Shown here piece by piece: positions 22,172 to 25,287 of a stretch of 61,979 bases of DNA (positions within the stretch are counted from its first letter, which is position 1; each line of letters opens with the position of its first letter). Source of the stretch: Escherichia phage PhiR12_3. A program made the translations under genes and the position numbers. The notes below the pieces were generated by a model. That model ran no database searches. It saw only the letters and a program-made list of their open reading frames with translations, and had not been told where the DNA came from. Location: the sequence record PV340552.1, one strand, 5' to 3'.

Positions 22172-24133
22172 TTGCAGAATGCATCACTTAACGGAGAGAT
22201 CGATAACGCACTGGACGCTTATTTTTCGAAAAATGGCGGCGCAGGCGGTAATCGTCCCGACGTAAAACTCCTTGTTAAGGACAAATACGGCAAGCAGTAT
22301 CCCGTTCTCATCGAGTATAAAGGCTACAAGGACAGGCTTATCAGACTTGGCAGCAACGGTATTATTGAGAACAAAGATGCCAGAAAAGAATGGAATTTTA
22401 AAAATATTAATGGATACGCGGTGAATGGCGCAGTCCATTATGCCAACGCACTTCTTCAGTTCACCAATTACCCTGATATTATTGCTATTGGTATGACCGG
22501 CTGGCGCGATGATGGTACAGGCGAACTGCATCATGAAATCGGCGTGTGGTACGTATCAAAGAATAATTTAGGAGCCGGACAGAAGGTTGGTGAATTCACC
22601 GACTTATCGTTCCTTGCTGACAAAAATGTTGATGGATTTCTCAACAAGATAAAGCTGCTTAATCTTCCTCCCGAAGAACTGGAAAAAATCAAGGCCAGCA
22701 AAGAGGAAGAGATAGACACGCGACTTTCCCGTCTGAATAACGATATTTACCAGAATGAAAAGGGGCTTGGTGAAAGCGATCGTGTTTACCTTGTTGTGGC
22801 TACCGTTATTGCAACGTTGGGGATTCCGGGAAAGTTAGCACCGCTGGATAAAAAAGAACTGACCTCTTCAACGGAGGAGGACTTGCGTGATGGTGATATT
22901 ATTTTCAGGAAAATAAGGAATTTTTTAAGGCTGAAAGCTGTTCCTGAAACAAAAAGAGAAATGATTTTGCGCTCGTTGCAAAATACGCTGTGGACTGAAA
23001 ACATTAACAAACCAGTCAACGGTGAAAGCCAGTTAAAGCGCGTGTTTGTTAAAGTTGTTGATGATCTTGGGGAGTATTACAAAATTGGACTGACCACCGA
23101 TTTTACGGGCAAACTGTTTAATGAGATGTATCGCTGGCTTGGATTTACGCAGGACAAGCTCAATGACGTTGTTCTGACACCACCTTATGTTGCCACATTG
23201 CTGGCACGACTCGCCAGAGTAAACAAAGATTCCTATGTGTGGGATTTTGCTACAGGTTCTGCGGGATTGCTTGTGGCTGCAATGAATGAAATGCTCATTG
23301 ACGCCAGAGAAAATATTCACTCACCGAACGAACTACAACTTAAGGAAGCGCAAATCAAGGCTGAACAGCTTCTTGGCCTTGAGGTGTTATCCAGTATTTA
23401 TATGCTGGCCATCCTGAATATGATTTTGATGGGGGATGGTAGCTCGAATATCCTCAATAAAGACTCGCTGGCCGATTTTGACGGCAAGTATGGATTTGGG
23501 AAAACAGGAGAAAAATTCCCTGCGGACGCATTTATTCTCAATCCTCCGTATTCAGCTAAAGGTAACGGCATGATTTTCGTGCAGAAGGCGCTGTCGATGA
23601 TGGATAAAGGCTATGCTGCAGTGATTATCCAGAGTTCAGCTGGCACAGGAAAGGCTACGGAGTACAACAAAAAAATACTCAAGGAAAATACCTTGCTGGC
23701 AAGCATCAAAATGCCTGCGGATCTGTTTATTGGTAAATCAAGCGTTCAGACGTACATTTACGTTTTTCAGGTAAAAATTCCGCATAACGCGAAACAGGCT
23801 GTTAAGTTTATCGACTTTTCCAATGACGGCTACGCTCGCTCTAATCGCAAAAAGGCAAGAAACAATCTTGTTGATGCCGATCGTGCAAAAGAGCGTTATC
23901 AGGAGGTTGTGGATCTGGTTCACTTCGGGAAAGGTTGCCTTAATATCTTTACGGAGGATGAATATTTTGAGGGAACAATCGATCCTGATAGTGGTGAGGA
24001 CTGGAATCAGACCAGGCCAGTAGATGCTAGGCCAACGCTGGAGGATTTCAAAAAGACGGTAGGTGATTACCTTGCATGGGAGGTCTCGCAATTACTGAAA
24101 AAACAAGGTGAAAACAATTTTGCGGGAAAGTAA
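22172..24133 (+). CDS. Bifunctional restriction endonuclease / N6-adenine methyltransferase (Type IIB/IIG, BcgI-A-like)
   Basis: 653 aa from TTG 22172; N-terminal RPD-x17-IEYK PD-(D/E)XK motif; motif I DFATGSAGLL then motif IV NPPY (gamma-class amino-MTase); reading frame is open upstream through the heptamer array to 21488. Confidence 0.75.
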   Translation: MQNASLNGEIDNALDAYFSKNGGAGGNRPDVKLLVKDKYGKQYPVLIEYKGYKDRLIRLGSNGIIENKDARKEWNFKNINGYAVNGAVHYANALLQFTNYPDIIAIGMTGWRDDGTGELHHEIGVWYVSKNNLGAGQKVGEFTDLSFLADKNVDGFLNKIKLLNLPPEELEKIKASKEEEIDTRLSRLNNDIYQNEKGLGESDRVYLVVATVIATLGIPGKLAPLDKKELTSSTEEDLRDGDIIFRKIRNFLRLKAVPETKREMILRSLQNTLWTENINKPVNGESQLKRVFVKVVDDLGEYYKIGLTTDFTGKLFNEMYRWLGFTQDKLNDVVLTPPYVATLLARLARVNKDSYVWDFATGSAGLLVAAMNEMLIDARENIHSPNELQLKEAQIKAEQLLGLEVLSSIYMLAILNMILMGDGSSNILNKDSLADFDGKYGFGKTGEKFPADAFILNPPYSAKGNGMIFVQKALSMMDKGYAAVIIQSSAGTGKATEYNKKILKENTLLASIKMPADLFIGKSSVQTYIYVFQVKIPHNAKQAVKFIDFSNDGYARSNRKKARNNLVDADRAKERYQEVVDLVHFGKGCLNIFTEDEYFEGTIDPDSGEDWNQTRPVDARPTLEDFKKTVGDYLAWEVSQLLKKQGENNFAGK

Positions 24134-24192
24134 ATTCCCCGCTCAGCGATAAATTAAGAAGCGTTGAGTGGGGAGAGTTCAGGATTGGCGAT

Positions 24193-25287
24193 TTGTTCTA
24201 TGTGAGCACAGGCTCGCTTATCTCCTCAGGAAGATTAAAACCAGGCAAAATCAAACGTGTTTCAGCAAAGAGCGATCAAAACGGTATCATCGGAGAGTTT
24301 GATACCGAGTTTATGGATGATGCAAGGCATTATGAAAATTTTATAAGCGTTAATTTTTTTGGAGATGCTTTTTATCATCCTTATTGTGCCAGCGTAGAAA
24401 TGAAGGTGCATGTTCTTACATTAAAATCAAGTAAGTCCGACTTTAATGCAAAGCGCGGACTGTATGTTGCCAGTATGATTAATAAAGCTTTAAAGGGGCG
24501 TTTTAATTATGGTCAACAGTTATCGAGTTCCAAACTCAGAGATGGAGAATATTTCATCTCATTACCAGTGAAAAATAATGAAATTGACTGGTTTTTTATG
24601 GATAATTATATAGAAGAGCTGGAAGCGGCCCATATAGAAGAGCTGGAAGCATACCTGATAGCTGCTGGGCTGAGTGATTACCAACTAACGGAAAAAGATT
24701 ATCTTATCCTGGAACATTTTAAAAATATTGAATTTTCAGGCTTTCCTGTTACTGAGTTATTCTCAGTGTGCAATACAGGAAACATATTGTCTAGAGACAT
24801 CATAGAAAATAGTGGGGATGTTCCTTATCTTTGTGCTAGCCGTGATAATAACTCTGTTAGTTCTTATATCGCCTATGATGACTCACTCTTGGAAAAAGGG
24901 AACTGTATTTTTATTGGTGGTAAGACATTCGTTGTAACTTATCAGGAGCGAGACTTTTTTTCAAACGACAGTCATAATTTGCGACTCTATGTTAACAATG
25001 AGGATGGAAGGACAAAGTTTGCTTATTTGGGCATTATTTCATGTATTTATAGGTCTATTTCACATAAATATTCATGGGGGGATAGTGTTAGTAATAGAAA
25101 AATTAAGAACGATGTTATTTGGTTGCCAGTGAAAAATAAGTCACCTGACTTTTGTTATATAAATGACCTTATTTCAGTTGTTCATAAGCTTGTCATTAAA
25201 GATGTTGTCCAGTACGCAGAACGCAAAATGAACGCATACAGGCAAGCTATAACAAGTCGCGGTTATGATGATTCTGGTGTCAGTTAA
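24193..25287 (+). CDS. HsdS-like specificity subunit (two target-recognition domains)
   Basis: 364 aa from TTG 24193 (first start-type codon in frame); WGEFRIGDLF-type N-terminus, central IEELEAAH/IEELEAYL coiled-coil spacer, second TRD; AT-rich. Confidence 0.7.
   Translation: MFYVSTGSLISSGRLKPGKIKRVSAKSDQNGIIGEFDTEFMDDARHYENFISVNFFGDAFYHPYCASVEMKVHVLTLKSSKSDFNAKRGLYVASMINKALKGRFNYGQQLSSSKLRDGEYFISLPVKNNEIDWFFMDNYIEELEAAHIEELEAYLIAAGLSDYQLTEKDYLILEHFKNIEFSGFPVTELFSVCNTGNILSRDIIENSGDVPYLCASRDNNSVSSYIAYDDSLLEKGNCIFIGGKTFVVTYQERDFFSNDSHNLRLYVNNEDGRTKFAYLGIISCIYRSISHKYSWGDSVSNRKIKNDVIWLPVKNKSPDFCYINDLISVVHKLVIKDVVQYAERKMNAYRQAITSRGYDDSGVS
24608..24650 (+). repeat. Tandem duplication (19 identical nt, 24-bp period) in central spacer of specificity gene
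   Basis: ATATAGAAGAGCTGGAAGC at 24608..24626 and 24632..24650. Confidence 0.9.

Follow-up and report, generated by a model that had tools for sequence, protein, structure and literature searches.

A prophage-borne BcgI-like restriction-modification system in Escherichia coli, probably switched by a heptanucleotide repeat at the 5' end of its nuclease-methyltransferase gene

The 61,979 nucleotides of Escherichia phage PhiR12_3 (sequence record PV340552.1) analyzed here, referred to as the window, contain two adjacent plus-strand genes of a restriction-modification (RM) system. The open reading frame (ORF) of the first one, encoding the RM or A subunit, was called with a TTG start as a protein of 653 amino acids (22172-24133; WP_001178557.1 in the Prokaryotic Genome Annotation Pipeline, PGAP). 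It is followed, 60 bp further on, by the gene of the specificity (S or B) subunit (24193-25287), which was identified by ORF call, Pfam and PADLOC and encodes 364 amino acids from a TTG start; PGAP sets its start at GTG 24202. Upstream of both genes lies a perfect heptanucleotide repeat on the plus strand, (GACCAGC)83, at 21501-22081, for which Tandem Repeats Finder (TRF) reported a period of 7, 83.0 copies and 100% matches. A previous sequence-only reading of the window had described a BcgI-like pair of genes in the late region of the phage, and both of its ORFs are indeed present. Our analysis points to a BcgI-like prophage system whose RM gene starts upstream of the repeat and is probably phase-switched by the repeat count, the window copy with its 83 units being predicted OFF.

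The A subunit joins an N-terminal PD-(D/E)XK nuclease to an N6-adenine methyltransferase of the gamma class that lies behind it. All motifs listed in the sequence-only reading were recovered in the order given there. These are RPD (22253-22261, D codon 22259-22261), IEYK (22310-22321, E-x-K 22313-22321) with 17 residues between D and E, and the methyltransferase motifs I (DFATGSAGLL, 23243-23272) and IV (NPPY, 23540-23551), all on the plus strand. With numbering from position 22082, the nuclease residues D60, E78 and K80 are invariant in 20 homologues. Pfam detected N6_Mtase (E 4e-21) and gave a weak VRR_NUC match over residues 5-57, and the PADLOC model REase_MTase_IIG matched the whole length of the protein with E 6e-228. 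The score for the NCBIfam hsdM equivalog TIGR00497 was 36 bits versus a cutoff of 243. A full-length AlphaFold2 model of the A subunit found HsdM structures as its best Foldseek matches and could be aligned with the RM chain of BsaXI, a Type IIB enzyme of known structure (8w0p, 8w2p), over 632-646 columns. Its N-terminal domain of about 200 residues is without counterpart in HsdM and is predicted to adopt the PD-(D/E)XK fold, with the invariant D, E and K. The protein ends after the methyltransferase and C-terminal helices, and the target-recognition domains (TRDs) reside in the separate 364-residue protein. Homologues with 71-73% identity occur in Neisseria, Providencia, Lachnospiraceae, Methylophilaceae and Nitratifractor, and the family is very widespread and conserved.

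The S subunit consists of two TRDs and a central helical spacer. Pfam recognized Methylase_S in two stretches, and PADLOC returned Specificity_II (E 9e-21) with matches to Type II specificity-subunit models only and none to those of Type I. Together with TRD cross-matches to the staphylococcal system Sau42I, described below, these results confirm the HsdS-like architecture that had been proposed. A separate HsdR had been reported as missing, and no HsdR or Res motor was found in the 62-kb window, where the only superfamily 2 (SF2) helicase is the 506-residue replication helicase beside the primase. Likewise, no HsdR adjoins the homologues of Neisseria or Salmonella. Neisseria flavescens has its A (686 aa) and S (360 aa) homologues alone among housekeeping genes, and the adjacent S gene is also conserved in Salmonella. 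BcgI-like systems are characterized by an R~gammaM + S1~S2 architecture with the nuclease at the N-terminus of the RM subunit, and the biochemical properties of Type IIB enzymes are defined in the same two papers (PMC3592470, PMC3874165). Those characters that can be read from a sequence are all found here, namely the fused nuclease and methyltransferase, the adjacent two-TRD S subunit, the homology of both subunits and the absence of a motor. A Type I system is contradicted by the missing HsdR, the hsdM score under the cutoff and the additional predicted N-terminal nuclease domain. The locus also differs from the single-chain Type IIG/IIL enzymes (MmeI, BpuSI, DrdV, AloI), since its TRDs are on a separate protein. 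Hidden Markov models, predicted fold, gene context and Sau42I homology agree, and the assignment to the BcgI-like systems (Type IIB, or multimeric Type IIG) rather than to Type I, as first suggested from the sequence, holds up.

Sau42I is encoded by Staphylococcus aureus phage phi42 (X94423.1, Dempsey et al.) and was described as a BcgI-like system of a temperate staphylococcal phage in a publication whose title is cited in PMC6532042. Like the window pair it is a prophage-borne two-gene system. Its large subunit shares 28% identity with the A subunit of the window over 685 columns, nearly the whole length (E 2e-49), and the nuclease motif PE..EDK of Sau42I is aligned with PD..EYK. The S subunits are 26% identical over 347 columns (E 1e-23) and have the same two-TRD layout, with cross-matches between TRD1 and TRD2. 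The two systems differ in host phylum and phage type; furthermore, the phi42 gene (639 aa) starts at residue 1 without a repeat tract, and the phi42 genes overlap, whereas those of the window are 60 bp apart. The R~gammaM + S1~S2 organization, the N-terminal PD..EXK motif, the HsdS-like partner and the lack of a motor are also common to BcgI of Bacillus coagulans (by architecture), BaeI, BsaXI, CspCI and NgoAVIII (Loenen et al. 2014, PMC3874165; Smith et al. 2013, PMC3592470). The Neisseria homologues, at 72% identity, may be NgoAVIII-like. No phage genome carrying the RM genes of the window was detected by megablast; a tblastn search of phage genomes revealed one fecal contig at 66% identity and distant homologues in staphylococcal and mycoplasma phages, including X94423.1. 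By analogy with BcgI, two RM subunits and one S subunit would recognize a bipartite site, and this site would either be methylated or, when unmethylated, lead to cutting of the DNA on both sides. Double-sided cutting and an A2B stoichiometry would be expected of the window system on this analogy.

The 5' boundary of the RM gene had been set at TTG 22172 in the sequence-only reading. This assignment did not stand, because TTG 22172 is only the first start codon of a frame which is open far upstream. The frame continues through positions 22082-22171 and the whole tract, so that the 653-residue protein represents only part of the gene product. No ATG, GTG or TTG occurs between the tract and 22172. 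This interval encodes, on the plus strand and outside the 653-aa ORF, the conserved N-terminal segment SKSRKSVKSVEPEITELANSWLKSYRLDYK of 30 codons, which aligns to the N-termini of the homologues from Neisseria, Providencia and others. The Neisseria and Providencia proteins begin with M..KSIEPNIADLANGWLKSY and have no repeat. For the 23 codons tested (KSVEP to TTG) the ratio of nonsynonymous to synonymous substitution rates (dN/dS) was 0.10-0.17 with dS saturated, indicating purifying selection, and the segment forms a confident helix (11-24) in the model of the nuclease domain. The codon at TTG 22172 is CTG in the second allele group of E. coli and in the Salmonella allele.

On the opposite side of this tract, the leader (21480-21494, plus strand) contains the Shine-Dalgarno sequence AAGGA (21480-21484) and two ATG codons. 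ATG1 at 21484 (frame 1) is without a Shine-Dalgarno sequence of its own; ATG2 at 21492 (frame 0) follows 7 nt after AAGGA, and directly before the tract stands ATGCTGCCA. The tract, located between the start codons and the gene body, begins at codon 4 of ATG 21492 and reaches to the conserved body. It is open in all three plus-strand frames, each of which encodes (PATSDQR)n, and its unit is not divisible by 3. Among the E. coli homologues, P0010 and P0013 begin with MLPDQRPATS, corresponding to ATG2, and P0014 begins with MILCCQTSDQRPATS, corresponding to ATG1; in all three proteins (PATSDQR)n runs in frame into the RM body. A 739-residue version was annotated by PGAP in strain 04-00955. The open frame, the selected segment, the proteins starting at the upstream ATG codons and the CTG alleles show that the repeat is part of the coding sequence and was inserted near codon 4 of the ancestral gene. 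Judged from these sequences, the RM gene would start at ATG 21492, which is equipped with a Shine-Dalgarno sequence, or possibly at ATG 21484, instead of TTG 22172. ATG 21492 would be the main start, and ATG 21484 may provide a weaker second level of expression. On the minus strand, the PGAP annotation has a "YXWGXW repeat-containing protein" or a "hypothetical protein" over the tract (21474-22091), as it does at the equivalent places of about 15 RefSeq genomes; since the tract is open in all frames, this protein is an artefact. In practice, automatic annotation thus mis-starts the RM gene and invents a YXWGXW protein, and assemblies made from short reads break there.

Of 5426 complete E. coli genomes, 30 carry the RM gene. 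From these, 27 loci were retrieved, and frames were counted over 28 genomes. The tract ranges from 16 to 120 copies, with uninterrupted tracts of 16, 19, 23, 31, 50, 54, 56, 58, 64, 65, 66, 76, 79, 80, 82, 83, 88, 89, 99 and 120 copies and six further tracts broken by off-size units. Related isolates differ as well: three O111:H8 strains have 56, 83 and 58 copies and two bovine isolates from Okinawa 23 and 19. The suspicion that strains G8 and UCPROB-001, which have different tract lengths, are one strain sequenced twice was rejected, as their hok alleles differ. In the allele group of the window, a copy number of 0 mod 3 joins the body to ATG 21492, one of 1 mod 3 joins it to ATG 21484, and one of 2 mod 3 joins it to neither. 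Examples of the first class are strains G8, DETEC-S792 and JNEC-KY173, of the second 2013C-3250, E2855 and JNEC-KY177, and of the third G6/7, 7-32 9A and 7-15 45A. In 7 genomes the body shares the frame of ATG 21492, in 10 that of ATG 21484 and in 11 that of neither; nevertheless, its 675/676 codons are intact in all 28.

With 83 copies the window belongs to the last class. Both upstream frames run into a TAA just past the tract (plus strand, 22084-22103), namely at 22084-22086 for ATG1 (ORF 21445-22086) and at 22101-22103 for ATG2 (ORF 21492-22103). Full-length enzyme is therefore predicted not to be made, and the window copy is predicted to be phase OFF. The repeat that would decide expression of this copy had been missed in the sequence-only reading. 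As 7 is not a multiple of 3, each gain or loss of a unit moves the body among the three frames. Slipped-strand mispairing would change the copy number, and production of the RM subunit would thereby be turned on or off as a lineage propagates; the locus would most likely act as a contingency locus with stochastic on/off switching of prophage restriction and methylation. An intragenic repeat with a unit that is not a multiple of 3 also sets the frame of the methyltransferase gene in the Type IIG system cj0031 of Campylobacter jejuni (PMC4889913) and in Type I hsdM/hsdS and Type III mod phasevarions (PMC7383803, PMC5909438). In contrast to those systems, the repeat described here is a heptamer, present 16-120 times at the very 5' end of a fusion of the BcgI type carried by a temperate phage, and the switching is deduced from comparison between strains only.

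The combination of leader and tract was also sought beyond complete E. coli genomes. It is carried by 18 prophage contigs of IMG/VR, and the sequence past the repeat, where it reaches a gene, belongs to the RM family; many of the contigs end inside the tract, and one (L153) ends 76 nt after a short tract with a different sequence. One Salmonella contig starts within the tract, and on it the RM pair precedes genes for holin and lysozyme. The leader-anchored tract had no exact match in 100,044 species genomes. A scan of genomes for the pure heptamer was dominated by the Planctomycetota metagenome-assembled genome (MAG) JALHRW01 and was uninformative on enterobacteria. In this MAG, GACCAGC tracts occur at dozens of separate places and are unrelated to the E. 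coli locus.

The S gene contains repeats as well. A 24-bp tandem duplication in the spacer (24610-24661, plus strand; IEELEAAH IEELEAYL) was detected by TRF and allele comparison. The unit IEELEAAH is present in 2 copies in the window and in 2-4 copies among strains. Spacer-length repeats are known from the EcoR124 family, and the 24-bp copy number may by analogy alter the spacer length of the recognized bipartite sequence as in the EcoR124I/II pair. The S alleles of E. coli differ by whole TRDs, and some match the S subunit of the window in the C-terminal half only, an indication of TRD shuffling. PGAP "partial" flags had suggested that the S gene is broken in many strains; this was rejected, as almost every group-1 locus, flagged ones included, has the 364-aa ORF intact. 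In the sister S alleles of group 2 a second simple repeat, (GCGGACTC)n with a unit of 8 bp, stands in mid-gene, at about nt 560-700 of the sequence that follows the A gene (loci L021-L025); it is absent from the window. With n=18 and 6 these alleles encode a full-length two-TRD protein, and with n=11, 16 and 4 they encode 175-199 residues with one TRD. Because the truncations follow the 8-bp count exactly (n mod 3), they point to a second switch rather than to decay. From its sequence (GCGGACTC)n looks like a specificity or activity switch, and it strengthens the view of the family as contingency loci in enterobacterial prophages.

A related repeat has been described by Atack et al. 2018 (PMC5909438) in the Type III mod gene M.Eco131I (GCCm6ATC) of E. 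coli producing Shiga toxin (STEC). The authors found a CAGCGAC[n] tract whose length varied within single-strain populations in fragment analysis, and they presented M.Eco131I as the first E. coli methyltransferase with phase variation. CAGCGAC is a rotated form of GACCAGC, the length of the tract varies between strains in both genes, and in both the start ATGCTGCCA adjoins the tract. The leader of M.Eco131I, gttgaaaaagcttgatttttattgagggaatttttATGCTGCCAGACCAGC, is clearly homologous to the window leader ctcaaaaaacgttgattttcataaaaggatgattttATGCTGCCAGACCAGC; the homology covers about 40 nt, at 3250-3300 of the EC100 plasmid locus (L029) and 21455-21500 of the window. The M.Eco131I leader has one ATG and that of the window two. 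The genes themselves are unrelated. M.Eco131I, which was not found in the window, is a Type III Mod with a Res helicase partner, and it lies beside the res helicase gene on plasmids of about 100 kb in 8 genomes, in contrast to the prophage location of the RM gene described here. On the one plasmid examined, that of EC100, it is found just downstream of mobA and a relaxase gene. The same unit, the homologous leader and the ATG thus form one module which precedes two unrelated RM genes, and the sequences suggest a transferable start-codon-plus-repeat module. Going further, we regard it as an evenly balanced possibility that a portable cassette of the leader of about 40 nt, ATGCTGCCA and (GACCAGC)n was grafted in E. 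coli onto two or more RM genes that are unrelated and reside on separate mobile elements, among them the BcgI-type fusion in Stx-like prophages and the Type III mod on plasmids, and replaced the native start. Restriction and methylation by the prophage would then be stochastic and possibly three-level, owing to two ATG codons in two frames. In the sister alleles, the (GCGGACTC)n switch between two-TRD and one-TRD forms of S and the variation of the 24-bp spacer would make both activity and target variable.

Several observations weigh against a switched BcgI-like enzyme. The AlphaFold2 model of the full-length A subunit has only a moderate predicted local distance difference test (pLDDT) score of 68.5, and neither protein matched a chain in the PDB by sequence search or by a 20-sequence profile. 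A fairly even spread over three frames is also expected of a neutral variable-number tandem repeat (VNTR), and tracts of 50-120 units are far longer than those of classical phase-variable genes and would add a disordered N-terminal extension of 120-280 residues. The off-size units may be assembly errors, and the frame call is therefore uncertain for six of the 28 tracts. Finally, low-level initiation at TTG 22172 or re-initiation after the upstream stops may occur.

The last point leads to an alternative in which the 653-residue TTG-start protein is itself the functional RM subunit, expressed constitutively or by late transcription, and the repeat is an irrelevant intergenic VNTR. PGAP indeed gives this protein in about 20 genomes whatever the repeat frame, and the catalytic PD...EYK as well as all methyltransferase motifs are encoded downstream of TTG 22172. 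We nevertheless consider this explanation unlikely, since no Shine-Dalgarno sequence precedes TTG 22172, the codon is CTG in the sister alleles of E. coli and Salmonella, and the 30 codons upstream of it are conserved across phyla under purifying selection and form a confident helix of the nuclease domain. Moreover, the tract is adjoined by an ATG that has a Shine-Dalgarno sequence, and another RM gene uses this combination of leader, ATG and tract. It is very unlikely that the locus is instead in decay, with an RM pseudogene that has lost its function and a runaway VNTR whose frame status is meaningless. Real examples of decay do exist, with an IS1 element between A and S in strain 2015C-3121 (positions 3404-4101 of locus L020) and an S subunit truncated to 312 aa in E110019 (L014). 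S is truncated in three group-2 strains too, the RM gene is out of frame in the window and in 11 of 28 genomes, and its presence in 30 of 5426 complete E. coli genomes is rare. Against decay stand the 675/676-codon body, intact in 28 of 28 genomes despite the frame changes, and a dN/dS of about 0.05 between alleles with dS saturated. Nearly all group-1 loci have retained a complete S of 364 aa, and the group-2 truncations track the 8-bp n mod 3.

An orphan Type I M+S methyltransferase without nuclease, which would have only an epigenetic or anti-restriction role or would need an HsdR encoded elsewhere, could be imagined from the NCBI names (HsdM family, restriction endonuclease subunit S) and from HsdM as the top Foldseek match of the full A model. 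It appears most improbable in view of the roughly 200-residue N-terminal domain with PD-(D/E)XK fold and invariant D/E/K and the homology to Sau42I. The hsdM model also stays under its cutoff (36 bits vs 243). In PADLOC the Type IIG model beats the Type I models by 200 orders of magnitude.

A BcgI-like system on a prophage has been known since Sau42I, and the switch is the noteworthy part of the present locus. Literature searches on the repeat unit, phase-variable Type IIB systems, BcgI in E. coli prophages and a 7-bp locus for multiple-locus VNTR analysis (MLVA) found no description of it; the kind of enzyme and the kind of switch are each known, and no report of their combination was found. 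In E. coli, methyltransferases with phase variation are considered rare and a single case has been published; the present locus looks like another, in which the leader and heptamer of that case are reused on an enzyme of a different class. If the proposed switching is true, lysogens of one strain would be mixed populations with respect to uptake of phages and plasmids, genome methylation and modification of released phage DNA. This would matter for STEC epidemiology, horizontal transfer and probiotic carrier strains such as the Symbioflor G-series.

The region matches a prophage of E. coli strain G6/7 with 100% identity, and prophages that are nearly identical occur in about 20 other complete genomes. 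According to the PGAP annotation of the identical G6/7 locus, the gene order is cI/cro, replication helicase and primase, NinG, NinH and antiterminator Q (20537-20962), followed by hok/gef (21163-21318), the two RM genes, a nanS-p-type SASA esterase (25898-27871), holin, lysozyme, Rz and terminase. Pfam searches of the large ORFs identified an integrase (111-1355), a P22-like portal, a capsid protein and tail fibres. The host element is a short-tailed lambdoid prophage of E. coli of the 933W/Stx type. The late-region location and the high A+T content noted before were both confirmed, with a G+C content of 0.385-0.45 over 22-26 kb, where the two RM genes lie, versus about 0.50-0.53 in the flanks. 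The RM genes are AT-rich cargo between Q/pR' and the nanS-p/lysis genes, at the position where Stx phages carry stx. They thus occupy the cargo site of Stx-type phages, and in one STEC strain they stand directly upstream of stx1c. In this strain, 2013C-3033, stxA1c and stxB1c are found directly downstream of the S gene of the same RM pair (positions 9638-10865 of locus L002), and RM pair and toxin genes are consequently neighbours on the late transcript in some Stx1c prophages.

Directly after Q, a promoter scan located a pR'-like late promoter on the plus strand (TTGAAA-16-TAGAAT, 20959-20986; 10/12 matches), a consensus match which would place the RM genes on the late transcript. The position in the late operon would result in strong RM expression after antitermination by Q. 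The scan gave no convincing sigma-70 promoter directly upstream of the RM leader. Between pR' and the leader sits the hok/sok toxin-antitoxin pair (20993-21318), with sok detected by Rfam at 20993-21167. A terminator scan found a plus-strand hairpin with a T-run just after the S gene (25355-25378), terminator-like by consensus match. A second strong hairpin (25659-25688) is the 3' end of the small RNA (sRNA) STnc100, which Rfam recognized in full length (25474-25690, 149 bits) in the interval from the S gene to nanS-p. Within the early genes of the prophage a pair of C4 antisense RNA and isrK sRNA (immunity RNAs of P1/P7 type) occurs in two copies on the minus strand, at 4001-4199 and 13593-13780, about 9.6 kb apart. 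The tail region contains an ORF for a YadA-like trimeric autotransporter adhesin with head repeats and membrane anchor (42801-44294) and one for a collagen-repeat tail fibre (39851-41839), and the G+C content around 42-44 kb is low (0.45).

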